A stretch of 63,297 nt of DNA, the filler included. It is 8 parts of 8 records of this genome, joined end to end, with 100 filler letters (N's around TTAATTAATTAA, not from the genome) between each part and the next. Parts side by side here need not be neighbours in the genome. Positions count along the whole stretch, not along the records: positions 31,407 to 41,482 come from SRR2962707_3403; 7 more parts are not named here. The stretch is one strand, 5' to 3'. A model generated the notes under the pieces. It made no database searches and was not told where the DNA came from. It was given only the letters and a program-made list of their open reading frames with translations. Below, in pieces: positions 39,229-63,297 of the stretch; position 1 is the first letter of the stretch, and each line of letters opens with the position of its first letter. Made by a program: the position numbers and the translations under genes.

Positions 39229-40500
39229 TTATAAATCGAAACCTAAGTCTTTTCTGTAGTTCATTTTATCGAAAGCTATTTTCTCCATGCTTTTGTAAGA
39301 AGTTTTCAAGGCTTCTTTAAAATCATTTCCGAAAGAAGTTACAGCCAACACACGCCCACCAGACGAAACAACCTCATCATCCTTCAACTGAGTTCCTGCA
39401 TGAAAGACTATAGAATCTTCAACATTTTCAAAACCTGTAATTACTTTTCCTTTTTCGTATGCTTCAGGATATCCACCAGAAACTGCTACAATTGTAGTTG
39501 CAGTTCTATCGTCTAAATCTAACTTAATAGTATTTAAAGTTCCATTTGCTGTAGCCTGTAGAAGCTCCACCATATCATTCTTTACACGAGGTAAAACCAC
39601 CTCGGTTTCTGGATCTCCCATACGTACATTATACTCAATAACATAGGGTTCCTCCCCTACTTTTATGAGTCCGATAAATACAAAACCTTTATATGGTATT
39701 TCGTCTTTTTGAAAACCTTCAATAGTAGGTTTTACAATACGGTCTTCTATCTTTTGCATAAAGGTAGCATCTGCAAACGGCACTGGTGAGATTGCTCCCA
39801 TTCCACCCGTGTTTAAACCAGTATCTCCTTCCCCTATACGCTTATAATCTTTTGCTGTAGGAAGTGTTATATAATTCTTACCGTCTGTTAAAACAAAAAC
39901 ACTAAGCTCTATCCCGCTTAAAAATTCTTCAATAACCACTTTAGCACTAGCATTTCCAAATTTAGCATCTACCAACATGCTTTTAAGTTCTGCTTTTGCT
40001 TCTTCTATATCGTCTAAAATTAAAACCCCTTTCCCAGCGGCTAATCCATCTGCTTTTAAAACATACGGCGGATTCAAAGTTTCTAAGAAAGCATATCCTG
40101 CTTCTAAACTCTCGGAAGTAAAACTTTGATAAGCTGCAGTAGGTACATTATGGCGCGCCATAAATTCTTTAGCAAACTCTTTGCTTCCTTCTAGAATAGC
40201 TCCTTTTTTTTCTGGGCCTATTACAGGAATATTTTTTAATTCATCATCTTTCAAGAAAAAGTCATGAACCCCTTGTACTAATGGATCTTCTGGGCCTACT
40301 ACTACCATTTCAATATTCTCCGCCAGCACTAATTTTTTAATAGCAGGAAAATCGGTTACCGAAATTTCCACATTGGTAGCTATTTTAGCGGTTCCAGCAT
40401 TACCTGGAGCCACAAAAAGATTAGTTAGTTTATTGCTTTGCGCAATTTTCCATGCGAATGTATGTTCTCTACCGCCAGAACCGAGTATAAGGATGTTCAT
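39229..40500 (-). CDS. purD: Phosphoribosylamine--glycine ligase
   Basis: GSGGREH, APGNAG, LEGSK.FAK, KADGLAAGKGV, NTGGMG, GDPET. Confidence 0.98.
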   Translation of the reverse strand: MNILILGSGGREHTFAWKIAQSNKLTNLFVAPGNAGTAKIATNVEISVTDFPAIKKLVLAENIEMVVVGPEDPLVQGVHDFFLKDDELKNIPVIGPEKKGAILEGSKEFAKEFMARHNVPTAAYQSFTSESLEAGYAFLETLNPPYVLKADGLAAGKGVLILDDIEEAKAELKSMLVDAKFGNASAKVVIEEFLSGIELSVFVLTDGKNYITLPTAKDYKRIGEGDTGLNTGGMGAISPVPFADATFMQKIEDRIVKPTIEGFQKDEIPYKGFVFIGLIKVGEEPYVIEYNVRMGDPETEVVLPRVKNDMVELLQATANGTLNTIKLDLDDRTATTIVAVSGGYPEAYEKGKVITGFENVEDSIVFHAGTQLKDDEVVSSGGRVLAVTSFGNDFKEALKTSYKSMEKIAFDKMNYRKDLGFDL

Positions 40501-40863
40501 TTTTACTGAATTTAATAGTCTTTGTATTAAAGTTCCAAAGGTACATTCAGTAGAGGCAAAAACATAATTTATGAATGAAAAGTTTATTTGTTTTTTACAA
40601 AAGCTAAAACGCTACGTTCTTTGTTCTTTAGCTTCTTCTATGGTTGTACTTTTACTTTTTAACAATAACCTCCTAAATAACTCTTGCTATTCATCTTTTT
40701 TATCGATAAAAAATGTTCAAACTACAACTTAAGAATGCTTAAAATAGGATAGTCCATGAAATATTGAAACCCAAATTACGGAAAGTCATAACTTCATAAA
40801 AACAAAAAAGCTAATCACTAAGGACTAACTAACTTTCTCTTGTCAATTGAATATATTTATATT

Positions 40864-41115
40864 TCAGATAGTATCATCTTTATCTAACTCAAAGTCGACA
40901 TCTAATAATTCCTTAGGTTGAACTTCTAATGCCTTAGCCAATGCCAATAAAGTTGTAAATTGAAAATTCCTATCTCCATTTTCAATAACACTTATATTTC
41001 CTTTAGTGACTCTACATCTAGTAGCTAAATCATCTTGGGATAGCCCTTTCTCTTTTCTTATTCGAAGCAAGTTCCTTCCAAATATTAATTGTCGCTTTTT
41101 ATCTAGATTACTCAT
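40864..41115 (-). CDS. XRE-family helix-turn-helix regulator
   Basis: FG..L..IR.EKGLSQ..LA......ISVIENG.RN....TL..LA.ALEV. Confidence 0.92.
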   Translation of the reverse strand: MSNLDKKRQLIFGRNLLRIRKEKGLSQDDLATRCRVTKGNISVIENGDRNFQFTTLLALAKALEVQPKELLDVDFELDKDDTI

Positions 41116-41160
41116 TTATCGGCACATCTTTCAACAAAATCACTAATTATTTTTTAAAAT

Positions 41161-41184
41161 TTTGTTACAAGAACTTGTAACAAA
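41161..41184. promoter_or_regulatory. Perfect palindromic operator upstream of the XRE gene
   Basis: TTTGTTACAAG-AA-CTTGTAACAAA (11-bp arms). Confidence 0.7.
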
Positions 41185-41305
41185 GCATTTTTTTTAATAC
41201 TTTAGTCAAAATTAATCTTCATTCTAATGCCTTAGAAGGATGGAATGAATAGTATATTTGCAATTCTTCAAATAAGAAAATATTAGAAGCAATTGCTTTG
41301 AGTCT

Positions 41306-41432
41306 CGGATTGAAAACTGGTAATTTTTATGCAATGAGATGATAAGTAAATTTGCTCACGACCCGGGCGTGGGCTCTCTTATCGTTGCACGGTATACCAG
41401 TACCTCAATCCGTTAAGTTGAGTTTCACGCCC
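41306..41432 (+). ncRNA. Putative structured cis/antisense regulatory RNA (C4/CI-like architecture)
   Basis: Five nested complementary segment pairs plus a mutually exclusive closing stem (41365-41376 with 41420-41432). Confidence 0.55.
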
Positions 41433-41482
41433 ATTCGTTTTTATACATTAGGCTTCTCAACTATTCTTAGCATTGGTTTCTT

Positions 41483-41582
41483 NNNNNNNNNNNNNNNNNN
41501 NNNNNNNNNNNNNNNNNNNNNNNNNNTTAATTAATTAANNNNNNNNNNNNNNNNNNNNNNNNNNNNNNNNNNNNNNNNNNNN
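41483..41582. other. Artificial contig spacer
   Basis: N44-TTAATTAATTAA-N44. Confidence 0.98.
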
Positions 41583-41760
41583 AGCAGCAGCAGCAGCAGC
41601 AGCTACTGCTGCTGCAACAACAACAACGAGAAGCGCCGAAGCATCCATTCCGACCGCATCTTCGTCCTCTTCGTCAAAAAAGCGCAAGGCTGCTGCAACA
41701 TCATCGTTGTCGCCACCACCACCACCACCATCATCATCGTCATCATCATCATCTTCTTCT
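41583..41760 (+). repeat. Trinucleotide low-complexity tracts (GCA, ACA, CCA, TCA) encoding poly-A/T/P/S
   Basis: (GCA)n at the contig start, then ACA, CCA and TCA runs. Confidence 0.85.
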
Positions 41761-44700
41761 AAATCTTCATTTTTGTCATCAGTTGCAGCAGCACCGGCGG
41801 TGCCGCCTTCAGGCAGCAGCCCCGCAAATTTTGGCGCTAGTCGAGGACGTGGACAGTTGCCAACGAGAACGACGACGACGGGCAATAGGCCCGGGGTTAA
41901 GCGCCCGAGACCGAGCATTCCTGTGCCCAAGTTCTCTCAAGAGGCTTCACCGTCCGCTGCTGCTGCTAATTCGCAGGGACGAGAGTCTCAGACTTTGTCG
42001 CAGGACAGTATGGACGGCACACGCCTGCCGAGGCCGCCGATTAGGGAGCCAATTTTGTGCCTGAGGAGCGTGCAAGATACGCGCACGGCGTGGCCGTTGG
42101 ACTCGGCTCGGCAACGCATATTTTCAATTGGGAGGAACGCGAACGTTGTGGACATTGTGGCCACTGGACAGCGTGTCAGCCGGGAGCATGCAGAATTGCA
42201 TTGGGATGCCAAAGATGCATGCTGGCGACTGGTAGACAAGAGCTCGGGTGGTGTCTGGGTCAACGAGAGGCGTATTCCGAAAGCAAGCGTTTTGTCAGGC
42301 AAAAGCAACGGGGACCTGCCAGTCACGCAGGGCTACCCGCTTCAGATTTTAGATCGTATTTGCTTCGGGCACAACCTGCCGGAGTCCACATTTACTCTTG
42401 AGTGTTGGACAAGCCCGCTGGCGAGACTGGTCGTATTGCAGCAAGATTCAACTGGCATTGCTGGGTCGGTGCCGCAACACTTTTGCCTGGATGCACGTAC
42501 CCGCCGCACTTATGCCATCGGTGAGCACGTTGCGCGCATTGTTGTTTGCCCTCGTGCAACGACTACGTGCGAGCAGTCTGCTTGTCAGAAATGAGACCAC
42601 AACTTTACGCCCCTCCCCGTTCCTGTATGCTTGATGCGTCCAGGCCGCAGCCAGAAAATGGTTCAAATTGCTGTTGTGCACGCAATGCTTTCAAGGGTAC
42701 ACATGCAGGTATGTTCAACAGCTTGCTTCTGAACGAAGAGAGCACCTCAATTGCCCACATGCATGTACCACTCGTGTGTCATTGAATGTACTGCGAGTGA
42801 CCTTTTCCATGAGCTCATGGGGCGTTTTTTTTGTGTCCCACGCCGATGAATGCAGCTGGAGTACACAGTGACAACCTCCGAAGGCGCTCGCAACATCCAC
42901 AAAAAGCCGGTCAATGGTGCCTCCGCAGCTCCAATAAGCACACCACCTATCTGCCATTGGACTGCGACGGATCGCGTGAGCCGCAACGGAACGTTCCTCA
43001 ACGGATCTCGCATATCTCCACGGGCGTCGCACACCCTGAGTCATGGTGATCAACTTGTTCTGGGAGACATTTCGTGCCCAGCAGTGACACTTCGTTTCGA
43101 ATACCTCGCAGGTGCTTTAGGTTGGTGCTTTGTTGGTGTGTCGCGCATGTTGCAATGCTTCCCCCATTGCCCCATGCCGGGACCTGCGGTCCAAATGCGG
43201 TCCAAATGCGTGGCTTCAGATTTTGCTTTTTTGCTTCGTTCTAGGGCGGGGAATTCAGAGGCCAACTGGCGGATTTGCCAATGCTGGCCACACAACAGGA
43301 CCTCCCATACAACGGAAACGGGCTAGGGACAGTGATCTAGTATCGTGGAAGGTTAGAACACGTCGTGCACGCTTCATGTACCTTCGCATTTCGACAAGGC
43401 GCTCGCATTTGTGCCTGGGTGCATCAAGGCCTCGTGTGCTGCATGATTAAGTAATGCTGTTGGAAAACTCTGCCAACCTCAACCCCTGCAGGTACAGCAG
43501 CAAGCCCTGCAACAGCAAATTCGTGCCTTGGAGGCCAAAGCACAAGCAGCGGACTTGAAGGCCCAACAGTTAGAGCGTAAAGCTAGTGAGGTGAAAGAAG
43601 TAGAAAAGGTTGTGATTCAAAAAGTTGTGGAGAAAGACACGGAGATGGAGGCAAAAAATGCTGAGCTACAGCAGCAACAGGCCGCCTTGCAAGGTGCGCG
43701 GACCTCATCAGCGTGGCAGCGTCAATATTTGTTGAAACACCCTTGAATAGGTTTGACTCTCGCAACTGTTCTGTTGATCCGTTCAATTTTGTTTGCTTGT
43801 TTTGTTAAAATCCAACTCATCGGCCAGCTCAAATTGCAGCCCTCCAGCAGCAAATGAAAGCAGCGGCTGAAAAAGAGGTGATTAAGGAGGTCGAAGTTGT
43901 CAAAGAAGTCGAAAAGGTGGTTCCGCGAGAGGTCATTAAAGAAGTCATCAAAGAGGTGTGTTTCCTCCCACAGCACGGTTGCCTGCCGACATGCCAGAAT
44001 TCGCGCCAACAACTTTTTTTGTGGTGGTGTCGAAGGTAGAGAAAGTGGTCAAGGACCCTGAGACCGAGGCTCAGAACGCACAGCTGCAAGCACAGCGGGC
44101 TGAGCTACAACATCAGATCGAGATGCTCGAGGCGAAGCAAAAGGAAGTGGCAGCAGTTGCAGAGCGCAATGCTCGCGTGAAAGCGGACATGATTGAATAT
44201 AGTTGGTCATGCTGCATTTGCACTGAGTACTTGGTCAAGTCACGGCTATTGGCGTGCGGTACGTTGCAGCAGCTTGGATCAAGTCGCTCGTTGGGAATAT
44301 GGGAGTATTCTTGCGCCCAACTGTGTGGCGCTTTACGATGTGCGTAGGCCACACGTTTTGCCAATCTTGTATCGAGGAATGGCTCGAAGTCAACAGCGTC
44401 TGTCCGAAGTGTCGTGAGCCAGTCAAAAGCCCGCCTTTGCCGAACACAGTGCTCGACGAAACTTTGTCCAAAATCATTTTGGAACTGAAGGACTGCGGTG
44501 AGCAAGCCGCAAAAGACTACCAAGAGAGACTTGATGAATGGGAAGAGACATATTCAGAATCTAAGAAAAGGACAATGGAACGACAAGGCGGTGAGGGTGC
44601 TCAGACTGCCGCTGCTGGAGCAGCTGCTCCCGCCAACACCGCATACACTTCACCACACCCCAATGATGCCGGAGCCACAGCGCCCTCATCAAGTGGCACT

Positions 44701-44993
44701 TCCTCGGACGCTGCTGGTCATGCTGTCGATCTCACTGGTGCAGTTCAAGTTCACCTGGAAAAGAACACTCGTCGCAATAAGCGATGTGATGTTTGCAAGC
44801 GCGTAGTTCGTCTTGGAGAGGCAGTGGTGAGTGGCGTGGCGGAAATCACTACTTTTTTGCAGAATATGGGCGCATGTGATGCATGCGGTGTTGCAGACTC
44901 TTGCATACTCAGCACGATGTCGTGCGTGCTCTAGGTTCGATCCCATCCAACTGTGAATAACTCCAACGAGCGACGGACGACTTATGCCCACAA
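41583..44993 (+). CDS. Eukaryotic multi-exon gene: FHA-FHA-coiled coil-C3HC4 RING (RNF8/CHFR-like E3 ligase); 5'-truncated, 3' end uncertain
   Basis: Proposed exons <41583-42520, 42644-42708, 42856-43111, 43245-43351, 43492-43693, 43828-43955, 44036-44258, 44348-44826 and 44935-. All introns are GT..AG and keep frame. Splicing rebuilds FHA2 (IGRS...SRVH...SRNGTFLNG...GD) and the RING (CCIC...CGHTFCQSC...CPKC). Confidence 0.78.
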
Positions 44994-45752
44994 GTGTGTT
45001 GACTCGTATTTTCGCATTGTAGCAGCCACTCGGCAGCAAGAGTGCTTCGGGAATTGTCTTATCGAGACTGATTTGTGCTTTGCATGTGCTTTCGTGTATG
45101 ATTCAACGCAGTGCATGCTGGCACCAAACTCACCAACATTCCCTTAACACCATCAGCGAGTTGACTTCGACGGTGTTCCGATACCGCGAGTTGCGAAGCA
45201 TGGGGTGGTAGTTCCAAGATGGCATGCTTTTACCCAGCTAGTGAGTACACTCGTGTCGAACTACAATGTTATCCTTTGTGTGTTTATAAAATAATTATGA
45301 TCGCAGTTTTTTTTTAAAATTAAGGAAATAAATTGACAAGTATCACGGCCGCAGTTGCACAATTCTTGCGGAGAAAGTCCGCACTGCGTCCGTGGCAATG
45401 ATGGCATACCCTGTGTCGAACAATTACTGTGGGCACGTGTCGGCAGCGTGCAGCTGCACTTCATCGAGCCGCACGCCAAAGAGTCTTTGGACGCACGATG
45501 TTAAATGGCATTGCTGGACATGCAAGTCCCTCTCGATAAGGCACTGCCCTGGAATGCGAGTGAGCCTTGAGGACAAAAGAATGTACAAGCAGAGATACAG
45601 CGACCGTAACAGCTTTGACAAGCAAATAATTGTTAGGGCAGTGGCAGTCGAACAAATAGCTGAGCAATCAATCAACAACTATTTTTTTCGTCGATGTTTC
45701 CCACAGTCGGAAGTGATTCGCCGAAATCGCATTGCTCCCAGCAAGGCTCGCC

Positions 45753-48662
45753 TCACTCCTTCACCAACTCCACGTGAAAGCAACCAGAGCTGTCCGTGCA
45801 GTGAATGGAGCTTCCTGTGCCACCAAAACCGGAGCAGACAAACTCATGCTCCGGGTTGTGGGTATTCGTGCAGAACGAGTAGTCGACGATAGAGTCGCCG
45901 TCCGTGGCCACCTCTGTCAACACGTCGACGTCGTCGGCAGAGTCCAAGTCCCACGCGAACACGCTGCCACAAAATATCAGCGAAACGATTGGCGAAACGT
46001 TAGCGGTGGTGCATTCACGGAACACAATGCCCACTGCTATTCTTTGCAAGCTGCAACTCACCGTTGGTACAGACAGGAGAACGGTTCGGCGCCGGTAACA
46101 TTGCCAACGTCGCTGTAGCTAAGGCTAGCCGCGGCTGTGATCTTATCCTGGCCAGGCTTGTCGCCATGCTGGACGCTCATCACGCGCAGGTGCATGTGCA
46201 GCTCCGTTGCCTAGCAACCAACCACGTGTGTGCGAAACACGTTAACCGTACTTCTTTGCAAGTGCACGAGAAAAAATGCTCAATGTGGCACGCAGCACGT
46301 GAGTAATGACCGCCCCGAAAATCCAAAAGCTCGCACCCCACACACACACACGCGCAAGCGTCGGAGCGCCGCACAGCACACGTGTCCTGAATCTAAAGGT
46401 ACGTACCTCACCGCCGAACAATGCAGCACACTCGCCAGAGGATGTGTAGCCCGAGTCCGTCGCTGCGCCGGAGAAGAGATCGCCAACCTCGACGGTGGAA
46501 TACGCCTTTGTTTGCGCAAAGCTGGAGGCTTGCCGAGCTGTTGCCGACACGGTCTCAAGCGAAGTTCCCTTGACATTTTGCTTGTTTGCTTCGCCGTCGT
46601 CGAGCGCCTGCAACCGGCGCATTGACGACATTGGGAAGCATTTGGCGGGACTGATGGGTTTGCTCACCGAGAACAGAGTTGCTGGCTTGGTGCTGGCGTT
46701 AAATAGCGTGAGACCGAGGATGGTGACGTCGATTTCGAAGCCGATGGATCCTGAGAAACCCCAGGAGAGAGCTGCGCTGATACCATTAGGGCAAGGATCG
46801 CCATTGGCAGCTTCCAGAGCGCGCGGCTCGGTGCCATAACTGTTGCGGTCGGCGTCCTGGGAGTAGTCGACGTCATACCAGGAGAAGGCACCGCCGGAGC
46901 CGGAGTACGATCCGCTGGACTGATACGCCACAAAATCGTAGAGACTTGGCGATTGGCTGGGCCCAGCACTCGGACTGGGGGTTGGCGACGAGCGCTCGGG
47001 GGTTGGCGACGTGAGCCCGGGGGAGGACGATGGCGCGCTGGAGGGTGAAGCGTCGGATCCATGAGCCGCTCGTGTGAAACTCTTGTCAATTTCGCCAATG
47101 GCGACGCCGTCGATGTGGGGCTTCAGTCCGAAAGTGGGCCCTCCGATATGCTCGGCAACAATACTAACAACTGGCTCAACATACACGCTGATTGCAGCGG
47201 TTGCGGAGCCAGATAGCTCGGTGAAATTTCCGTCGCAGTTAAACGACTTGGTCTGGAGCAATGACCAGCCCGATGCACTGGCGTTGTACTGAACACCGTA
47301 GAGCACTGCGCCGGAAGCTTGGCCAAAGCCAGCTACTACGGCGTTGGCCTGTATCGTGGCGTCCAGGCCCACCGAAACAGGGACTGTGATCGAAAAGGAC
47401 ACTGGGATACCCAAGATTGGCAAGTCAAAGTCCGGCACATGGAGGGTGGCCACGGTTTTGGATGCGTTGAAACTTTTCGTGGCGCTCGCCTCGGCATGCA
47501 CCCCGACGCGCCCCGCAATCGAACCCTCGGCAGCAATCTTGAGATAGTGCATCTTGTATTCCACGATGTCCAGTTCGAAGATCAGGTCCAGGTTGGTGTC
47601 CAGGAAGCAGTCAGTACAAGTGGCGCTCGCTGAGATGCTGTCGTCAGCGCCGGTGTACCCGAGTGAAATGGTGTGGTTTTTGGCTCCGCCGTTGCCGTCT
47701 GAGTTCCAAGAAATGGATTCGATTACCCAAGTCTTATTGGCGCTCAGACCGCCGTCCACGAGCAGGTCGATGGTGTCTTCCACGACATCTTTTACCACAT
47801 TTACGACTGTGGCGACTACGGCCTCTGCCTTTTTGACCACGAACGACACGGCCTTTGCGATGTCGCAGCCAACGTCCCACCAACTGCAACCGTCAAGACT
47901 GCGACGCGTGCTTGGCGCACCGGGCGCAGCAGCATCAAGAGTGTGCTCCACAACGCCATAGTTCGCCGGCATGTCGTGGTCGTACTGCTTGCAGGGCGGG
48001 AGGGCGCCTGACCGGAAACGAATCTTGGCGTTCTTGAAGACGTCCGTGTATCCGGCAGGCTGGGTGGCGATGGTCACAGTGGCCGACGTCGTGCTGCCTG
48101 AGCTGGTGGCAACGGGCCACGCGCCTGGCTTTGCGAACGAGGCTTTGCGCAGAATAATGCCGTGCGGAGAGGACAAGGGGTGGTGCTGGTGGCCTTCGTA
48201 GAGAGGCTTCTTGGCGCAACCCCATTTAGCGGTGCCGCTGATGATTACCTTCGTGTGCGGGGAGGCAGAGACCTGCGCCAAGAGCGCGTTTGCCGCGGCA
48301 GTCGAGGTAAACTCCAGCTCAAGCGAAGCTGAATCGTCGCTGCACACCACAGCGTCGAGACCCAAAACGTCGTCCAGCGAGAGCATGAAGGCATCGTGGG
48401 CGTGCTCGACGTCGTAGGTCATCTGCAGCACGCGGTCGTCTCCTTTGTTCTTCGTTGGAAATCTCCGTGTGACGTTCAGCTTGCCGTGCCGTTTACTTGT
48501 GAACGTGGGGTGCAGCAGTTCCTCGACGCCCATGAAGGGGCCACTTGTGCGAGCGGCATCAGCATCACGGTTGAGAACCCCATCGTTTGCGTGGACAGCA
48601 GCAGCGCACTGCGTGGACGCCAGGACGGCCGCGCTCAGGAAGGCAGCTAGCCAGCCCTGCAT
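45753..48662 (-). CDS. Eukaryotic secreted protein, 3 exons (48662-46407, 46210-46062, 45963-45753), about 871 aa
   Basis: Signal peptide MQGWLAAFLSAAVLA. Introns GTACGT..TAG and GTGAGT..CAG keep frame to TGA at 45753. Beta-rich core with CTDC and a Ser/Pro linker; resembles fungal DUF7029/DUF7223-type proteins (from recall, unverified). Confidence 0.72.
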
Positions 48663-48997
48663 CTTTGACGAGACTTGGCGGTGGCTGGTGGTGGCTGGTC
48701 GGTCGAGTACGCAGCAGCGGTGTGGTGGTGGAGCTGGTTTGTTGGACTTGACGACTTACTTGCTTGATGACTTACTTGCACTTTTCTTTTGAAAAAAGAG
48801 ACAACAAAAACGAGGAGAGGAAAAGACGACGGCGTAGACGACGCACGACAGGCAGGGCGGCGGGCGCGGGGGGGTCGACACAGCAGGCAGGCTGCAACAA
48901 CCTGAACGAACGAGGAACAACGCGTGGATTGAGGGTGCCCCACACCACACACAGAGAGCCTGACTCCTGACTGCTGGAGAGGGAGGAGGCAGCGGAT

Positions 48998-49026
48998 GAG
49001 GGAGGGAGGGAGGGAGGGAGGGAGGG
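48998..49026. repeat. (GAGG)n microsatellite at the contig end
   Basis: GAGGGAGGGAGG... up to the gap. Confidence 0.9.
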
Positions 49027-54739: not shown

Positions 54740-55330
54740 GAGTTTGGCTTCGGGCATGTTGGTCATGCCGATGACGTCGCAGCCCCACTGGCGATAGAGA
54801 TTGGACTCGGCAATGGTCGAAAACTGCGGCCCTTCCATCACCAGGTACGTGCCGCCCCGGGCATGCGGAATGTCCAGTGCCGCAAGGCTTTCCGTCAGCG
54901 CATCGCCGAGACGCGAACATACCGGATGCCCGAACCCGACATGGGCCACCAGACCCTCGGCAAAAAAGCTTTTGGTGCGGGCGAAGGTGCGGTCGATGAA
55001 CTGATCGACGACGACGAACGTCCCCGGCGGGTATTCATCCTTCAGCGAGCCGCACGCCGACAATGACAGGACTTCCGTGCATCCGAGCCGTTTCAGCGCA
55101 TCGATGTTGGCGCGGAAGTTCAGGTCCGACGGCGGGATGCTGTGGCCGCGGGCATGGCGCGGCAGAAAGGCCATTTCGACGCCGTCCAGGGTGCCGCGCA
55201 GTATCTCGTCGGACGGATCACCGAAGGGGGTTTTCACGCTTTCCCAGCGGGCGTCTTCCAGACCGTCGATTTCATAAAGACCGCTGCCGCCGATCACGCC
55301 GATCATCGGTGTTGGCGCCGCATCGCTCAT
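54740..55330 (-). CDS. mtnP: S-methyl-5'-thioadenosine phosphorylase, 3'-truncated
   Basis: IGGSGLY, TPFG.PSD, FLPRH..GH, RANI.AL, DQFIDRT, EGPQFST.AES, GMTNMPEAKL. Confidence 0.95.
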
Positions 55331-56013
55331 ACGCTCTCTCCACGCCGCAGAACCGCTTCGAACAGCTGGGTCGTGCGCATCCCGGCAATGGCAGCCGCAC
55401 GTGGATCGAAGCTGCCCCGCATGTCGCAGTGAAAGCCGTGGCCGGCTTCATAGACGTGAATGCCGACCCCCGGTTGTGCCTTGCGCACGGTCTCGACATC
55501 GCTCATCGGGATCGAGCCATCGCTGTCACCGAAATGCAGGATCGTCGGGCACGTCGGGGATTCGCCGGCGACCTCGTGAATGCCACCGCCGTAATAACCG
55601 CTGGCGGCCTGGATATCGAGCCGGCAGGCGGCCAGATACGTCACGAACCCGCCCCAGCAGTAACCGACGGCGCCGACCCGGCCGGCATCGGCAATCGCCG
55701 CGCGGGCGGCATCGACATCCGCCATGACACCGTCCAGATGCTCGTTGGCGGTCGCCTTGTGGGCGCGTCCCTTTTCGATATCGGCAGGCTCATAGCCGAC
55801 CTCGAAGCCCGGTTCCCAGCGGTCGTACAGCGCCGGGGCGATCGCCGTGTAGCCGACCGCCGCCCAGCGTTCGACAAGGTCGCGAATGTGCACGTTCACG
55901 CCGAAAACTTCCTGAATGACGATGATGCCGCCATAAGGCGTGCCGTCCGGGTCGGCGCGGTAGGCATCGAACGCGTGACCGTCGGACGCCGTTAATTTGA
56001 TGGTTTCGGGCAT
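55327..56013 (-). CDS. Dienelactone hydrolase family protein
   Basis: IQEVFGVN, GYCWGG nucleophile, YYGG, HFG..D, AGHGFHCD. Confidence 0.93.
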   Translation of the reverse strand: MPETIKLTASDGHAFDAYRADPDGTPYGGIIVIQEVFGVNVHIRDLVERWAAVGYTAIAPALYDRWEPGFEVGYEPADIEKGRAHKATANEHLDGVMADVDAARAAIADAGRVGAVGYCWGGFVTYLAACRLDIQAASGYYGGGIHEVAGESPTCPTILHFGDSDGSIPMSDVETVRKAQPGVGIHVYEAGHGFHCDMRGSFDPRAAAIAGMRTTQLFEAVLRRGESV

Positions 56014-56183
56014 TTTTTCATGATCCTCCCTGAAGTGGTCGCAAAAAACAGCCTAAAGTTATGCATAGGGTAATCAAGGGATAACAGCCAGGATTCTAGG
56101 TTGCAGATGACAACACTTTTATTGATGATAACTAGAAAATACCATCATAGGTATTCATGAGGGAATTAAGGGGGCGATTGAGT

Positions 56184-56906
56184 ATGAAGCTATTCCGCGG
56201 GCGCTTTGCCAAAAATCTAGCCGGCATCACGATTGTCGCATTTCTACTGTCAGCCTGTCAGACGACGGCTGTTTATACCAGTGATGTCCTCAAGCGGTCT
56301 GAGGAGAAAGTGCGGATTCTGGTCATGCCGATGGACGTTGAGTTGAGCGAGGTTTCCCTGGGGGGCGTTGCAACGATCCGCGCAGACTGGACAGAAGCGG
56401 CACAAACCCACCTCAAAACCTCACTGGATCAATTTCTGGCTGAGCGGAACGCGGAGATCGTCTTTTATACGCCCCCTGCCGAAACTTCCGAGTTCAAGGA
56501 AGACGACGAACAACTGGTGAAACTGTTCGGCGCCGTCGCGAATGCAATTTCCGTTCACCACTATGTGCCTGGCTTTGCGTTGCCGAGCAAAAAGGAACAG
56601 TTTGACTGGACCATGGGCGACACCATCGACGGCATCAGCGAACGCTATGATGCCGACTACGCCTTGTTCATTACGGTGAAGGACAGTTATGCAACGGCAG
56701 AACGTGCCGCCGCGATTGCCGTTGCGGCGATTCTCTTCGGCGTTGCCTTGCAGGGCGGCATTCAACAGGGTGCAGCGGCGCTCGTCGATCTGGATTCCGG
56801 TGAATTTGCCTGGTTCAATCAGCTGGCCCGTGGCGCAGGTGACATTCGAACCGAGAAGCCTGCAAAAGAAACCATGACCTCGCTGATGCTGGAATTCCCC
56901 AAGTGA
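56184..56906 (+). CDS. Uncharacterised lipoprotein
   Basis: SD AAGGGGG before ATG 56184; lipobox LSAC; C-terminal AALVDL.SG...WFN......GD.R. Confidence 0.78.
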   Translation: MKLFRGRFAKNLAGITIVAFLLSACQTTAVYTSDVLKRSEEKVRILVMPMDVELSEVSLGGVATIRADWTEAAQTHLKTSLDQFLAERNAEIVFYTPPAETSEFKEDDEQLVKLFGAVANAISVHHYVPGFALPSKKEQFDWTMGDTIDGISERYDADYALFITVKDSYATAERAAAIAVAAILFGVALQGGIQQGAAALVDLDSGEFAWFNQLARGAGDIRTEKPAKETMTSLMLEFPK

Positions 56907-58258
56907 TTTTTTCCTGCTCACGGCTGGCCTGCCTGATCGCAGCATCTGTTGCCATTTCAGCGTGCCAGACAACCGGGACCAGCAAATGGGTCCCGGCCAG
57001 TTCGTCAGCAGCGGATATCACGACTTCCGATAATCACGTTCTTGCCGGCCAGGAGGCGGTTGGCATTCAGGATATCAATTTCGAGATCGGCAAGAACCCA
57101 TATGCTTACAAGGATATCCCGCCCGGTGTCCGGCCGGCCCTCGACACCCGTGAAGCCGGCATTTGGCTGCAACTGGACAAGATCGAGGAAAAACAGAAAA
57201 GCGCCGGAAACCGGATCAATGATGATGAATTAAATTCATACCTTACCGAAATCGCCTGCAAAATGAGCGGCCCTTACTGCAAGGACATCCGGGTCTACAC
57301 GCAGCGCATCCCTCTGTTCAACGCGACCATGTCGCCGAACGGCATGATGACGATCTATACGGGATTCCTGCTCCGAACCCAGAACGAAGCTCAGCTGGCG
57401 TCCGTTATCGGCCATGAAGTCGGACACTACATCAGACGGCACAGCATTCAGGGTCTGGATGATACCATCGCGAAATCCGACTTTAGCGCAGTTTTTGGCA
57501 TACTTGCGGCAGGCATGGGCGCGCCGGGTGCCGCAGACCTGATGAACCTGGCTTTGATCAGTTCCCAGTTTTCATTTAACCGCGACCATGAACGTGAAGC
57601 TGACCTGATCGGCATCAACCTCTTACACCTCCGCGGATATGATACACGCGAGGCTGCAAATGTCTGGAAACTGCTGCTGCGAGAGCGCGATCCCGACAAG
57701 AATCCGGATGAAGTTTCCACATCGACCCCCTTTTCCAGTACCCACCCCTCTGACGGTGAACGTCTGAAATCCCTCACATCGATTTCCAACAAGTTACAGG
57801 GACCGGATAAGTGGGGAGTCACGAATGAAGAGCGGTTTGACAAAATCGTCGGCCCCTGGAAGTTCCGTTTTTTGCAGGATGAAGTCCGGCTTCGGAACTG
57901 GAAAACGTCATTGGCGTTGCTCGATATTCTTGAAGAATATGGCCACGACAAAGCGGAGATCGCGTTCTTCCAGGGTGAGATTTATCGCAACCGGGATAAA
58001 AAAGCGGACAAGGATGCCGAGGACGAAGATGACCGGATCGCCGACATCGACCGGGCTCTGGAAGCTTATGAGAAATGCCTCTCGTTACCGGGTGCACCGG
58101 CAGAAGCATACCGGGCGGCGGGGCTGATCCATTACAAGAAATCCAATCATGAAAAATCGCGCGCTGCGTTAAGCCGCTATCTGCAGCTCAAACCCAACGC
58201 AAAAGACAGAAAATTGATCCAGTATATGATCAACAATGCAGGGAGTGTTTCCTCTTGA
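56903..58258 (+). CDS. M48-family zinc metalloprotease lipoprotein with C-terminal TPRs (BepA-like)
   Basis: Lipobox ISAC; FNA.M.PNG, GFLLR..NEAQLA.VIGHEVGH, E.EAD..G, STHP; TPR-like tail. Confidence 0.88.
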   Translation: MIFSCSRLACLIAASVAISACQTTGTSKWVPASSSAADITTSDNHVLAGQEAVGIQDINFEIGKNPYAYKDIPPGVRPALDTREAGIWLQLDKIEEKQKSAGNRINDDELNSYLTEIACKMSGPYCKDIRVYTQRIPLFNATMSPNGMMTIYTGFLLRTQNEAQLASVIGHEVGHYIRRHSIQGLDDTIAKSDFSAVFGILAAGMGAPGAADLMNLALISSQFSFNRDHEREADLIGINLLHLRGYDTREAANVWKLLLRERDPDKNPDEVSTSTPFSSTHPSDGERLKSLTSISNKLQGPDKWGVTNEERFDKIVGPWKFRFLQDEVRLRNWKTSLALLDILEEYGHDKAEIAFFQGEIYRNRDKKADKDAEDEDDRIADIDRALEAYEKCLSLPGAPAEAYRAAGLIHYKKSNHEKSRAALSRYLQLKPNAKDRKLIQYMINNAGSVSS

Positions 58259-58815
58259 AGAAGCTTATCGTCATCTGTGCTCTGATCCTGAACGCCTGCA
58301 CGGCCTTCACATTGGTGGAACCCGGCAAAATCGATGTGGGTGGGGCGTATTATGTTACCGTCGATTCGGCCTGGAGCCGTTCACAACATGGTCACATCCA
58401 CTCTCTGACAAAGGATGGGTTTGCGATCCAGGCCCTGCAACTGTCTACGGGCGTCAAAGAAAAAGAGCACTTGTTTACGGGTCAGACACAACTTGAACAG
58501 CCGCCCTACAAATCAGACCTGAGCCTGATCGAGCTTCAGCAGTTTATTCATGACAGCTTTGTCGCCAGTGGTGTCGAGAAGATTTCGTTCAGCGAAATCC
58601 GCCCCGAATCCTTCGGTGAGGCGCAGGGCATCCGGGCCGAATTCGACTTCTATACAAAAAGTGGCCTACATAAACGCGCAATCATCGCCGGAGCACAGAA
58701 TGACGGAAAATTCTATTTTATTCTGTACCATGCCCCAGCCCTGTATTTCTTCGACAAGAACAAGCAGGATGCGGAAGATATCATTCGCTCGGTGACGTTT
58801 AAAAAAGAGACCTGA
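58255..58815 (+). CDS. Uncharacterised lipoprotein (possible PsbP/DcrB-like fold)
   Basis: TTG start overlapping the M48 stop; lipobox LNAC; C-terminal Y.ILY.AP...F.......II.SV. Confidence 0.72.
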   Translation: MKKLIVICALILNACTAFTLVEPGKIDVGGAYYVTVDSAWSRSQHGHIHSLTKDGFAIQALQLSTGVKEKEHLFTGQTQLEQPPYKSDLSLIELQQFIHDSFVASGVEKISFSEIRPESFGEAQGIRAEFDFYTKSGLHKRAIIAGAQNDGKFYFILYHAPALYFFDKNKQDAEDIIRSVTFKKET

Positions 58816-58818
58816 TCT

Positions 58819-59445
58819 CTACTCTGCCGCCGATTTCATGTTCGGGCGCATCAGTGTGAAGACGTCCTCGACGGATGTGTAGTCCATGTAACCGAGCCGG
58901 GCGACCGGACGGATTTTCAGGACATCGACCATGCCGTCCTTGAGGAACTCGTCCTTGATATGCACGCCGATGACACGGCCGACGCAGAGCGCGTTACCGC
59001 CGCCGTTGCTGTCCGCAGGCAGGTCCATCTTGCCGATGAACGTACATTCGAGATGGATCGGCGCCGCCTTGACCCGGAGCGGTTTGACCAGTTCCGAGGG
59101 CTCCATTTCGATACCGAGCAGTTCCGCTTCATCCACATCTGCCGCGTAGCCGGCGCTGGAATCGTTCATGGAATCGATCAGTTCATAGGACACCATCGAG
59201 CAGACGAACTCACCCGTCTGTTCGGCGTTGTAAATACTGTCCTTGGGTTCACCCGGCCCGCGGCTGCCGCTGGCGAACATCACCATCGGCGGCTCGCCGG
59301 AGACGCCGTTGAAGAACGAATACGGCGACAGGTTCCCGACCCCGTCCGGGCCGATCGTTGAAATCCAGCCGATCGGGCGCGGAATGACACAGCTCTTGAA
59401 CGGGTTGCGCGGCAAGCCGTGCGGTTCATCGGTTTTCCAGAACAT
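58819..59445 (-). CDS. Flavin reductase family protein (DIM6/NTAB-like)
   Basis: PRPIGWIST....G..N.SPYSFFN, KDS..N...TGEF, P.ARLGY. Confidence 0.92.
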   Translation of the reverse strand: MFWKTDEPHGLPRNPFKSCVIPRPIGWISTIGPDGVGNLSPYSFFNGVSGEPPMVMFASGSRGPGEPKDSIYNAEQTGEFVCSMVSYELIDSMNDSSAGYAADVDEAELLGIEMEPSELVKPLRVKAAPIHLECTFIGKMDLPADSNGGGNALCVGRVIGVHIKDEFLKDGMVDVLKIRPVARLGYMDYTSVEDVFTLMRPNMKSAAE

Positions 59446-59447
59446 GG

Positions 59448-60242
59448 TCAGTGATCCTCTGTTTCATCAATGGGAGCATCGCCCACATAGGGAACGGTTT
59501 CTTCGACAATATCCCATATGTGACGCGCCGTCGGGTTGGTCTGTTCTTCGCGGATATGCGCGACCAGGCCGGCGGCCCGGCTGATCACGGAAAAGCCGCG
59601 CATGATTTCCGGCTCGACGCCGATCTCCAGCATCACCGCCGCGACCCCGCCGGTGGCGTTGATCGTCAGGTGCCGGCCCAGTTCATCGTCGACGATCCCG
59701 GACAGCCGCTGCATGGCGTCGATATAAATACCGTCGATGCCGTCCTGCGACAGGGCGATTTCGAACAGCCGTGCCGTTCTGGGATCATCGGGCTTGTGCA
59801 GGTGATGGCCGAACCCGGGCAGCGGTTTCTTGGCCGCCCTGAGGGCGCGGATTTCCCGGCGCGCGGCGACGTCGAACCCGTCTTCATCCTGCAAAAGGCT
59901 CATCAGCAGCTTGGCGGCATTTTCCATGGTGCCGACGAATTGCGAGCCGACGTTGAGCAGACCTGCCGCAACGGCAGACTGCAGCGCTTCCGGGGCGGAA
60001 TGATAGGTCAGCCGCGTGGCGATGGCGCTGGGGGTCAGACCGTGTTCCATGAGGGTGACAAGGACCGCATCCAGAATGGCGATTTCGCCGGCTGTCCCCT
60101 TCCGTCCCATGATGTGCATGAACATCATGTCGGTGAACGAGACCTTGCCCATCAGTTCCCCGACAAGGCCGTCGTCGCGGTAATACAGTTCCTCGTTGGT
60201 GTGGGTCGCCAGTCTTGTCGTCGGTTTTCCGTTGGCGCTCAT
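59448..60242 (-). CDS. Citryl-CoA lyase-like / citrate-synthase-family protein
   Basis: LVTLMEHG.TPS, PGFGHHLHKPDDPR, INATG, RAAGLVAH..EE; short, single-domain type. Confidence 0.85.
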   Translation of the reverse strand: MSANGKPTTRLATHTNEELYYRDDGLVGELMGKVSFTDMMFMHIMGRKGTAGEIAILDAVLVTLMEHGLTPSAIATRLTYHSAPEALQSAVAAGLLNVGSQFVGTMENAAKLLMSLLQDEDGFDVAARREIRALRAAKKPLPGFGHHLHKPDDPRTARLFEIALSQDGIDGIYIDAMQRLSGIVDDELGRHLTINATGGVAAVMLEIGVEPEIMRGFSVISRAAGLVAHIREEQTNPTARHIWDIVEETVPYVGDAPIDETEDH

Positions 60243-61762
60243 GCTGCCGTTTCTCCGTCCTTGGGGGTGAACCTGTCCTTGGCTTCCCGGCGCAGCACCT
60301 TGCCGACCGGGGAACGAGGCAGTTCGTCGACGATGTGGACGACTTTCGGGGTTTTCACCGAGTCCAGCCGCTCCTTGACGAATGCGGCGATCTCGTCGCC
60401 GCTGACGTCACTGCCGGGGCGGACTTCGACCGCCGCCGTCAGGGCTTCGCCCCATTTCCGGTCCGGCACACCGAAGACCACGCATTCGCTGACCATCGGA
60501 TGCTGGCCCAGCACGGCCTCGACATCGCTCGGATAGACATTGAAGCCGCCGGTGATCACGACATCGCGGATGCGGTCCTTGATATAGACGAACCCGCGTT
60601 CGTCGATGACACCGACATCGCCGGTATGCAGCCAGCCGTCGATGATCGTCTCGGCGGTCTTGTCGGGCATGTCGAGATACCCCTTCATGACCAGATCACC
60701 CTTGAGCACGATCTCGCCGGTTTCACCCGGTCCAAGGATATTGCCATCCGGGTCCATGGTTTCGACACGGGTCATGAACGTGGCGCGGCCCGTGGACGCC
60801 CAGTTTTCCGGCTCGGCCCATTCCCTGGCCCGCATGCAGATCGCAATCTGCGGGGCTTCTGTCTGTCCGAAACAGGTTTCGACCGCGTTGTTGAACACCT
60901 TCATCGCACGCGGCACTTCGTCCTTGCGGATCGCGGCGCCGCCGACGATCAGATGCCGCAGGGCGCTGAAATCCCGTTTTTCGATCCCCGGCTCGTCCAG
61001 CATCATGTAGACCACGGTCGGCGGCACGAAGAACATGGTGATCCGGTCGCGTTCCATGGCTTCAATAATGGATGCCGGTTTCGCCGGCCCCATGAACACC
61101 TGCATACCGCCGACCGCGAACGTCGGCATGATCAGGGTATTCGTGCCATGGGTCATCGGCGCCGCCAGAAGGTGGCGGTCATCAGCATCGAAGTCGAATT
61201 CATGCAGCATCGAGGCGACGCAGGTATTCCAGACCCGGTAGGTCTGCATGCATCCCTTGGGCTGTCCGCTTGAGCCGCCGGTGAACTTGATCGCCTGTAT
61301 ATCGTCGAGGCTGAGGTCATGGCGCACCGGTTTCTGACCATCAAAACGGCTGACGAGATCGGCGATCGATGTTCCTTCGGCCCCTGCCCCCTGCTTACCG
61401 ATCAGTCGCACGGCGTTGCCGCTGTCGACCTTGTCCCAGCAGTCGGCATCGACGACGACGATGCCGGGGGCCGTGACTTCGCAGATCCGGTCCAGCTCCG
61501 GCTTGCCGTTGCGCGGGTTCAGCGGAATCCAGGTTTTGCCGGCAGCGAACACCGCCAGCCAGGCAAGAAGATGCTCGAACGTATTGTAGCCGCAGATGCC
61601 GACCCGGGTCTGCGGCGCGGGGTCGATATCCTGCAGCGCGGCGGCCAGGGCATTGGCCTTGCGCGCCAGTTCCGCATAGGTCAGTTCCATATCACCGTCG
61701 CGAACGGCAATCCGGTCCGGGAAGCGCTGCGCGGCCCTCAGAAAGTGATCAATCGGCAGCAT
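60239..61762 (-). CDS. Acyl-CoA synthetase (AMP-binding enzyme)
   Basis: FTGGSSG.PKG, FGQTEA, WLHTGD.G, DR..D.VITGG.NVYP, LPRS..GK; start placed at MLPID just after the upstream gene's stop. Confidence 0.92.
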   Translation of the reverse strand: MLPIDHFLRAAQRFPDRIAVRDGDMELTYAELARKANALAAALQDIDPAPQTRVGICGYNTFEHLLAWLAVFAAGKTWIPLNPRNGKPELDRICEVTAPGIVVVDADCWDKVDSGNAVRLIGKQGAGAEGTSIADLVSRFDGQKPVRHDLSLDDIQAIKFTGGSSGQPKGCMQTYRVWNTCVASMLHEFDFDADDRHLLAAPMTHGTNTLIMPTFAVGGMQVFMGPAKPASIIEAMERDRITMFFVPPTVVYMMLDEPGIEKRDFSALRHLIVGGAAIRKDEVPRAMKVFNNAVETCFGQTEAPQIAICMRAREWAEPENWASTGRATFMTRVETMDPDGNILGPGETGEIVLKGDLVMKGYLDMPDKTAETIIDGWLHTGDVGVIDERGFVYIKDRIRDVVITGGFNVYPSDVEAVLGQHPMVSECVVFGVPDRKWGEALTAAVEVRPGSDVSGDEIAAFVKERLDSVKTPKVVHIVDELPRSPVGKVLRREAKDRFTPKDGETAA

Positions 61763-61763
61763 C

Positions 61764-62291
61764 TCAGTTTCCGTCCTCGACCATGTCGGTCTTAAAGCGT
61801 TTCCAGCGTTCGACGTAATGAACCGCGATCCGGTGCACGTCGGCAATGGCCTCTTCCTTGAGCTGGCGGATCACCCGGCCGGGCGCACCGACCACCAGCG
61901 AACCGTCAGGGATTTCGGTGTTTTCCGTGATCAGCGCCTTGGCGCCGATGATGCAGTTCTTGCCGATTTTGGCGCCGTTGAGCACCACCGCGCCGATCCC
62001 GATCAGCGTATTGTCGCCGACCGTGCAGCCATGCAGCATCGCCATGTGACCGATCGTCACGTCCTTGCCGAGCGTCAGGGTATATCCGGGGTCGGTATGC
62101 AGAACGCTGTTTTCCTGGATATTGGTGCCTTCACCGACAATGATCGGATCGTTGTCGCCCCGAAGCACGGCGCCGAACCAGACACTGGCCCCCGCTTCCA
62201 GGGTCACCTTGCCGATCACCGATGCATTGGGGGCAATCCAGTAATCGTCGCCATGGGTCGTAACCCGGTCTTCACCGAGTGTATATTTCAT
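61764..62291 (-). CDS. Gamma-carbonic-anhydrase-like hexapeptide-repeat protein (YrdA/PaaY/CaiE family)
   Basis: LRGDN..I, NIQE..VLH.D, TIGH.AMLHGC, G.PG.V.R. Confidence 0.92.
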
Positions 62292-62348
62292 CGCTGTCCT
62301 CCGTTGGGTCAGGAGATATTGTCGTCGGTCAGCCAGCCTGGAAAAAGG

Positions 62349-63297
62349 CTAAACTGACCATGTCTTTCCGGATTTTATCAGTGCAAGGGCGTCTTCGGCG
62401 GGCTGCGGCTTGGCAAACAGGTAACCCTGACCAAAATGACAATCGAGATTTTTGAGGCGTTCCTGCTGGGCTTCGGTTTCAATGCCCTCGGCGACGATGT
62501 TCATATCCAGTGCCTGGGCCAGCCCGATGATGCTGTGAACGATGCGTTTACTGTTTTCGGTTTCGTCCATACTGTTGACGAAGGCCCGGTCGATTTTCAG
62601 CGTATCCAGCGGGAACATATGCAGATAGCTGAGGCTTGAATACCCGGTGCCGAAATCATCAATGGCCAGCGATATGCCGAGGGCTTTCAGCTTTTTCAGC
62701 GCATTCGCCGCATGGTCGGGATTTTCAACCATCAGGGTTTCGGTGATTTCCAGCTTAACCTGATCTAGATCGACGCCGCTGGCGTGAATGATCTCGCCGA
62801 TCCGGTCGATCTCGTCCAGATCCGACAATTGCAGCCCCGAGACGTTGGTGCTCATGAACGGCAACGGGTCGTTCGGATGCAGTTCGGCAAATGCCGCTGC
62901 GAAAAGATTTTGATCTCTCAAGCTGGATTCCAGAGCAAACCGGCCCAGCTCGACAATCAAACCTGTGTTTTCAGCGAGCGGGATAAACCGGTCCGGCGGC
63001 ACGAACGAACCGTCGTCCTTCTGCCAGCGCATCAGGGCCTCGAAGCCGGCGATCTTGCCGGTCGCGAGGGATATGATCGCCTGGTAGTGCATCTGGAACT
63101 GCTGCTTTTCGAGACCGTGCAGCAGGTCGCGCTCATCATGGATTCGCTGGAACGCCATGGCGCGGATTTCTTCAAGCGAAGAATTCTGCCCGGAATCTTG
63201 CATGTTCAGACCGGAATATCTGTTCTGCGCGTTTCTGAAACGTGTCAGCACGACCCGCAAAATCAGGTTCATCATCGGATCGGCGGACGTCAGCGGC
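62349..63297 (-). CDS. EAL-domain c-di-GMP phosphodiesterase, 5'-truncated
   Basis: YQ.I, FEALMRW, FIPLAE, LEITE, DDFGTGYSSL.YL, LKIDRAF, AEGIE, QGYL; frame is open to the window end. Confidence 0.93.
   Translation of the reverse strand, partial: PLTSADPMMNLILRVVLTRFRNAQNRYSGLNMQDSGQNSSLEEIRAMAFQRIHDERDLLHGLEKQQFQMHYQAIISLATGKIAGFEALMRWQKDDGSFVPPDRFIPLAENTGLIVELGRFALESSLRDQNLFAAAFAELHPNDPLPFMSTNVSGLQLSDLDEIDRIGEIIHASGVDLDQVKLEITETLMVENPDHAANALKKLKALGISLAIDDFGTGYSSLSYLHMFPLDTLKIDRAFVNSMDETENSKRIVHSIIGLAQALDMNIVAEGIETEAQQERLKNLDCHFGQGYLFAKPQPAEDALALIKSGKTWSV

Follow-up and report, generated by a model that had tools for sequence, protein, structure and literature searches.

Covariation supports two mutually exclusive folds in a structured RNA beside an hth/XRE gene: a candidate attenuator and landing pad for RNA-guided transcription

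What lies between a divergently oriented hth/XRE gene and the end of the contig that carries it, and what might it control? A sequence-only reading of the locus had proposed a two-state RNA switch with the antisense architecture of the phage C4 and CI RNAs. The stretch of DNA analysed (63,297 nt in all, the window) consists of eight contigs chained via N/TTAATTAATTAA linkers, and the RNA element is found in the contig at 31407-41482 (34% G+C), 50 nt off the contig end. On its 5' side, the same contig carries purD (39229-40500, - strand) and an ORF called as an 83-aa hth/XRE gene (40864-41115, - strand), divergent from the RNA gene. The 83-aa product gave XRE-type NCBIfam matches, every one of them under the cut-off, and is 39% identical to the hth product adjoining an rpoE-dcas12f locus. 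A perfect 11-bp inverted repeat, TTTGTTACAAG-AA-CTTGTAACAAA, could be read between hth and the RNA promoter (~41160-41184); it accounts for a weak mir-338 match to Rfam. This repeat (41161-41184) lies 45 nt from the hth start codon and 69 nt upstream of the TAnnTTTG box of the RNA, nearer to hth. The sequence-only reading supposed an XRE-controlled promoter for the RNA, a suggestion to be weighed against this position and against the RNA having a box of its own. Inverted repeats immediately upstream of hth have been described as HTH-bound (Hoffmann et al. 2026, PMC13472631, in the text available), and the repeat of the window is a candidate operator, likely to be bound by the HTH protein. The eight contigs span a G+C content of 0.33-0.58; two of them, 41583-49026 and 54740-63297, are rich in G+C, contain long coding-like stretches of low complexity and look different from the contigs of Flavobacteriaceae type. 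This spread, together with the odd G+C-rich contigs, suggests a mixed assembly or bin.

On the + strand, the predicted fold is a long hairpin (fold A, 41306-41412) with an energy of -40.8 kcal/mol. It consists of five nested helices: a (41306-13/41405-12), b (41316-22/41395-01), c (41330-35/41384-89, with one G-U), d (41341-46/41378-83) and e (41354-60/41368-74, with one U-G). The z value of -2.39 obtained for this single sequence, with 6 of 200 shuffles equally good, was modest; homologues were therefore sought, and the comparative evidence was decisive. A covariance model built from five copies was applied to 151 related genomes and to 151 genomes sampled across the class, and 34 copies were aligned to a model based on fold A, which biases the resulting counts towards that fold. 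In this alignment, 94.5% of the 1555 cells of fold A (helices a-e plus P0, a 5' hairpin at 41262-41294) were paired, as opposed to 35-40% with the partners slid. Changes on both sides were found for 39 of 47 pairs, a result reached by none of 500 shuffles. Stem a has retained its pairing even though almost every copy has its own sequence there, and all 12 pairs of P0 have changed on both sides, with 84-87% of cells paired.

The second fold (fold B) has a 5' domain (41302-41340), in which helix P1 (41302-07/41335-40) encloses helix P2 (41313-16/41324-27, loop CUGGUAA), and a 3' unit (41365-41444) formed by a terminator hairpin (T1/T2/T3) and a U-rich tail. In the 3' unit, which has an energy of -28.6 kcal/mol on its own, 41365-76 pairs with 41420-32; the long hairpin so formed (41365-41432) contains an apical hairpin, GGTA-TACCAG-TACC, with the loop UACCAG (41391-41404). 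The sequence-only reading had placed helices a-e, the second state and this apical hairpin exactly where we find them. Fold B, including P1 and P2, which the sequence-only reading had not listed, was paired in 90.7% of 1075 cells across the 34 copies (slid controls: 41-60%), with 12 of 32 pairs changed on both sides. Three of the six pairs of P1 (86% paired) and three of the seven pairs of T1 (99.6% paired) have changed in this way, and T3 also shows such changes. Helix P2 is paired in 95.6% of cells and nearly invariant; the near-invariance of P2 and of helix H counts neither for nor against their reality.

The two folds compete for the same nucleotides. Positions 41306-07 are common to P1 and helix a, making folds A and B mutually exclusive, and the strand CGUGGGC is common to helix e and T1, with three-way changes in some copies. 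In L002, the segments GCUCACA, UGUGGGC and CACACCC have been altered jointly, and in L008 and L009 a G>A change in the shared strand is accompanied by C>U in the 3' strand. The G-U to A-C ratio was 88:25 for fold A and 117:15 for fold B, an excess of G-U indicating that the structure is that of a + strand RNA. The element is therefore a structured RNA whose two folds covary and exclude each other; the two states claimed from the sequence are both borne out by compensatory changes in the 34 aligned homologues. In the window, the energies are close (-47.7 kcal/mol for fold A versus -47.9 kcal/mol for a fold-B-like minimum). When the e strand was simply made unavailable, fold A proved the more stable in 31 of the 34 copies, by a median of 6.7 kcal/mol, so that fold B may be transient only. 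Folding of successive prefixes gave P1/P2, then fold A, with fold B prevailing only after the tail has emerged.

The RNA element covers ~190 nt (41261-41452). Its promoter box, TATATTTG (41253-41260, + strand, TAnnTTTG), is kept directly before the model start in relatives (21 of the 22 closest copies), and homology with the copies of the nearest genome (G001) begins exactly at this box. We take TAnnTTTG to be the -7 promoter consensus of Bacteroidota. Motifs at -7 and -33 are also mentioned in the available text of Hoffmann et al. (PMC13472631). At the other end, a run of at least four T residues follows the 3' hairpin in 27 of the 34 copies. The predicted structure thus has what is expected of an intrinsic-terminator attenuator: a G+C-rich stem, a U-run and an alternative pairing of the 5' strand. 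Contigs of relatives from RNA libraries span 41275-41433; such contigs neither reveal ends nor prove transcription. Tiny ORFs within the RNA lack conservation across the aligned copies, and a leader peptide was rejected accordingly, as was an internal promoter for the 3' unit, given that a TAnnTT(T/G)G box precedes stem e in only eight of 34 copies. Within the window, a simple scan also rated stem e and the following UCUCUUAUCG (41354-41383) as terminator-like; a stop there would yield an RNA of ~115 nt.

Searches of known families did not place the RNA. With cmscan against Rfam, there was no relevant match in 40400-41483 at E≤10 or in four homologous loci at E≤1, the sole overlapping match being snoR66 (E 1.4), and ARAGORN found no tRNA or tmRNA. 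The known riboswitch classes, FopS/GibS and Flavo-1 were rejected because none of their Rfam models matched 40400-41483 or the four homologous loci; FopS/GibS also differ in architecture.

The family is widespread. Among the 151 related genomes, 73 model matches were obtained in 34, with one to six copies per genome, and G001 contains four copies with 78-86% identity to the window RNA. In the class-wide sample, 29 of 151 genomes matched, 25 of them labelled only as 'same class'. The closer copies have an opposite-strand ORF 8-146 nt upstream of the RNA, and a Pfam HTH family was confirmed in 11 of 14 such ORFs tested (L038, L040 and L046 being the exceptions); the window RNA itself lies beside an XRE gene. 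Downstream genes on the RNA strand begin at a distance of 128-957 nt, mostly 480-710 nt. At many loci, they are susC and susD followed by a peptidase S9, a peptidase M16 or a TlpA-like redoxin, as in the G001 locus syntenic to the window (susC-susD-peptidase S9), and at others rpoE and a Cas12f-like gene. In the window, only the start of the conserved leader is retained (41445-41482, + strand); alignments and blastn showed that in relatives it continues to a small ORF and susC, and here it is cut by the contig end. By blastn, the susC, susD and peptidase continuation was absent from the rest of the 63,297-nt window, and no gRNA scaffold was found within the window. The regulated operon of the window is beyond the contig end at 41482, as the sequence-only reading had supposed, and relatives carry a susCD-peptidase or rpoE-dcas12f operon in this place.

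A search with one dCas12f protein query (E≤1e-10) gave matches in 10 of the 151 relatives, in one as a fragment only, and in five of the 10 genomes of the window's genus. All 10 of these dCas12f genomes are among the 34 RNA-positive genomes, and 24 of the 34 had no dCas12f match. The confinement of dCas12f to RNA-positive genomes, with the RNA present in more, indicates that the RNA is the wider and probably the older module. The greater breadth of the family points to an unrecognised class-wide leader RNA before susCD-type operons and before mobile-element cargo.

Several features of the surroundings recur. In L037, L038, L039, L042 and L044, defence genes follow the hth gene on the hth strand, the hth being confirmed by Pfam in L037, L039, L042 and L044, but not in L038. 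These genes include SIR2 with HerA, a 1052-aa SIR2 protein, HEPN/DUF4145 with a methylase and HATPase, Thoeris ThsB/ThsA with a PRTase and a reverse transcriptase, and a KwaB-family gene (Kiwa-like), and the flank on which hth lies resembles a variable defence-island hotspot. On the other side, a conserved small ORF of 33-40 codons starts ~60-110 nt past the terminator (L001 1765-1866; likewise in L003, L007, L009, L010, L012, L013, L014 and L017), ending in ...LF(P/A/K)KKPK(C/G/W)P(I/V)* and, in most cases, with a QYN..FTV core. The ~500-nt leader before susC contains further conserved hairpins (L001 ~2000-2030 and 2150-2200, and aligned loci), one of which is CATGGC-ATCCG-GCCATG, and a stem GACCC...GGGTC ~45 nt before the susC start that shows compensatory changes between loci. 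A cluster of susC, susD and a peptidase S9/M16 or TlpA-like redoxin recurs in L036, L037, L040, L041, L042 and L048, followed by genes on the opposite strand that encode a small DUF6520 protein and a membrane protein with a MauE domain. It may be a peptide-related uptake locus; no mention of DUF6520 was found in the literature searched. More distant RNA copies (L025, L031, L032, L034, L035, L051 and L089) occupy mobile-element settings without an hth neighbour. Their neighbourhoods are of several kinds: integrase genes upstream; a ParA-like gene upstream, together with a DUF5712 protein; small ORFs and a type I restriction-modification system downstream; and, in L089 (genes named by eye alone), conjugative-transfer-like genes upstream and a response regulator downstream.

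RNA-guided transcription by dCas12f has been reported in Bacteroidota (Hoffmann et al., Nature 2026, PMC13472631). The available text of that study describes an abundant 'hth-associated ncRNA' between hth and rpoE-dcas12f, also upstream of susCD, together with a low expression of rpoE and dcas12f. The targets of dCas12f gRNAs overlap the 5' end of this ncRNA on the same strand, transcription starts 46 bp (45-48) past the TAM, and neither dCas12f binding nor activation in E. coli requires the ncRNA (PMC13472631). Its role and promoter are called unknown, with a negative regulator suggested (PMC13472631). As far as the available text goes, neither a terminator nor antitermination nor processing of the ncRNA is mentioned there, and the ncRNA is not mentioned in the portion consulted of a companion structure preprint.

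The window element corresponds to this ncRNA in position, orthology and guide match. Our model matched over its full length, at 138.6 bits, precisely within the spacer between hth and rpoE at an orthologue of the published Fta locus, in a genome with an Fta-like gRNA and with hth, sigmaE and dCas12f proteins close to those published for Fta. In G364, matches to the Fta-like guide were no commoner than for the control. In the mature gRNAs of Supplementary Table 4, the scaffold ends in ...AUACAAC and is followed by the guide, which in Chryseobacterium gleum (Cgl) is GGCGUGGGCUCUUU (PMC13472631). In the genomes searched here, the guide after ...ATACAAC begins with (G)GCGTGGG at six of 14 dcas12f loci, among them both loci of G001 (guide GGCGTGGGCTTTCT). 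Between the G001 guide and positions 41366-41379 of the window, 13 of 14 nucleotides agree, including the entire seed; the TAM position is occupied by G, a base found there in only 19 of the 34 copies. The putative landing pad (41365-41379, + strand; TAM G41365 followed by GGCGTGGGCTCTCT) is thus the invariant 5' strand of the predicted terminator. From position, orthology and guide match, set against the published account as available, we identify the window element as the hth-associated ncRNA of Hoffmann et al. (PMC13472631). The discrete 3' unit of ~70 nt anticipated by the sequence-only reading begins where these authors place the 5' end of the abundant ncRNA.

From the structures, covariation, promoter box, U-run, guide identity and geometry established here, we infer three steps, termination, read-through and bypass. 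We consider it fairly probable that the hth-associated ncRNA gene is a bistable terminator/antiterminator and doubles, at DNA level, as a landing pad for transcription guided by RNA. The RNA would start at ~41266 from a promoter of the housekeeping type at TATATTTG (41253-60). In fold B, the P1/P2 domain, the 3' hairpin (41365-41432) and the U residues would act as an intrinsic terminator and set free a short and stable ncRNA. Helices a-e of fold A would instead sequester the 5' strand of the terminator, and with that strand tied up, polymerase would read through into the downstream operon. The complementary loops CUGGUAA and UACCAG could initiate the switch between folds. Where present, dCas12f-sigmaE would initiate ~46 bp beyond the TAM, inside the terminator loop. 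Under the published rule, the predicted RNA-guided start (TAM+45 to +48) falls at 41410-41413 on the + strand. In every one of the 34 copies, TAM+46 (~41411 in the window) is followed by the end of a' after 1-7 nt and by the terminator's 3' strand after 14-23 nt. An mRNA starting inside the loop would lack the terminator 5' strand and thereby escape termination. Relative to the published text available, the new elements of this proposal are that the guide-matching strand would be the 5' strand of an intrinsic terminator, the long hairpin an antiterminator and the guided start located within the terminator loop.

A broader proposal, which we put forward only tentatively, is that the ncRNA supplies the sensor and gate so far missing from RNA-guided transcription. 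On this view it would be an old, bistable attenuator spread across the class, also in many genomes without dCas12f, and its invariant switch strand would subsequently have been taken over as a universal landing pad. If this were true, one guide could activate every operon with the leader, from a start inside the terminator loop; read-through of the terminator would trigger the positive feedback of rpoE-dcas12f, with the released RNA perhaps titrating the guide. In the text available, Hoffmann et al. leave open the role of the ncRNA, the driver of its expression and the inducer of the system, and the anatomy described here makes these questions directly testable.

Other explanations fit parts of these data. 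We judge it unlikely that the RNA acts in trans as a decoy (an anti-guide) with fold B merely terminating transcription, an explanation compatible with the terminator/antiterminator reading. The released RNA would refold to fold A, and its free 3' tail, GAGUUUCACGCCC, would pair with the guide of the gRNA, keeping dCas12f-sigmaE off its targets in the manner of an anti-sigma factor. The guide equals region 2 of the RNA, making regions 1 and 3, the cis partners of region 2, complementary to the guide; the greater stability of fold A in 31 of 34 copies and the negative regulator proposed by Hoffmann et al. (PMC13472631, in the text available) also speak for a decoy. However, the same text puts the 5' end of the abundant RNA at the target, which is region 2, and this species would then be the 3' hairpin alone, in which the anti-guide strand is paired; moreover, 24 of the 34 RNA-positive genomes gave no dCas12f match. 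We regard it as distinctly improbable that the element is no more than an ordinary small RNA or an insulator terminator, with the long hairpin as its mature shape and a second fold devoid of regulatory meaning. The scarce variation of helices P2 and H would suit such an RNA, as would the reported abundance of the ncRNA beside lowly expressed rpoE and dcas12f (PMC13472631, available text), but P1, T1 and T3 have changed on both sides, the shared strand shows three-way changes, and conserved nucleotides 'unpaired' in one fold pair in the other.

The phage-type interpretation, in which an antisense RNA of the C4/CI kind is processed from a leader and pairs with a second a/b site elsewhere in its transcript, now appears very improbable. 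The two-state shape, a likely discrete 3' unit and exposed complementary loops do resemble that architecture, but the Rfam comparison in 40400-41483 at E≤10 gave no C4, c4-2, c4-a1b1 or P4 CI match, and the second a/b target that this interpretation predicted was lacking within 900 nt downstream in 33 loci (0.61 for the locus's own sequence versus 0.62 across loci). The neighbours are susCD, rpoE-dcas12f and defence genes, rather than ant/icd-type immunity genes, and kinship with C4/CI was abandoned. Distant copies adjoin integrase, ParA and relaxase-like genes, as might be expected of a structure acting at DNA level (a recombination site, for instance, or a single-strand promoter carried by mobile DNA); we find this hardly tenable, as the G-U excess is strand-specific, a promoter box and a U-run flank the structure, and an RNA has been seen at the orthologous place (PMC13472631, available text). 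The terminator/antiterminator with its landing pad remains our preferred reading.

The RNA can be set against four known systems. The C4 RNAs of phages P1 and P7 and the CI RNA of P4 are, like the window RNA, small structured units in a leader with complementary loops; the window RNA differs from them in gene context and shows neither a match in sequence or model nor a second target site. The FopS/GibS sRNAs of Bacteroides are similarly multi-copy and tied to susC control (PMC11697453), although FopS, as far as the text available describes it, has a single-stranded 5' seed and a terminator, is in Rfam and belongs to Bacteroidaceae (PMC11697453). The hth-associated ncRNA, as described in the available text (PMC13472631), is divergent from an hth/XRE gene and has a same-strand, gRNA-matching target, as does the window RNA; it also shares with the family described here a position upstream of susCD-peptidase or rpoE-dcas12f operons (for the window, via its homologues) and the presence of multiple copies per genome. 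The window RNA reaches ~105 nt further 5' than the published 5' end (PMC13472631), and beyond that account, so far as available, the family has a conserved promoter box, two covarying folds and many member genomes without a dCas12f match. Finally, intrinsic-terminator attenuators and riboswitch platforms have, like the window RNA, a terminator stem with a U-run and a 5' strand able to pair upstream; the window RNA differs from these in having no known ligand, leader peptide or tRNA partner, and in a switch strand that would double as the DNA target of an RNA-guided sigma factor.
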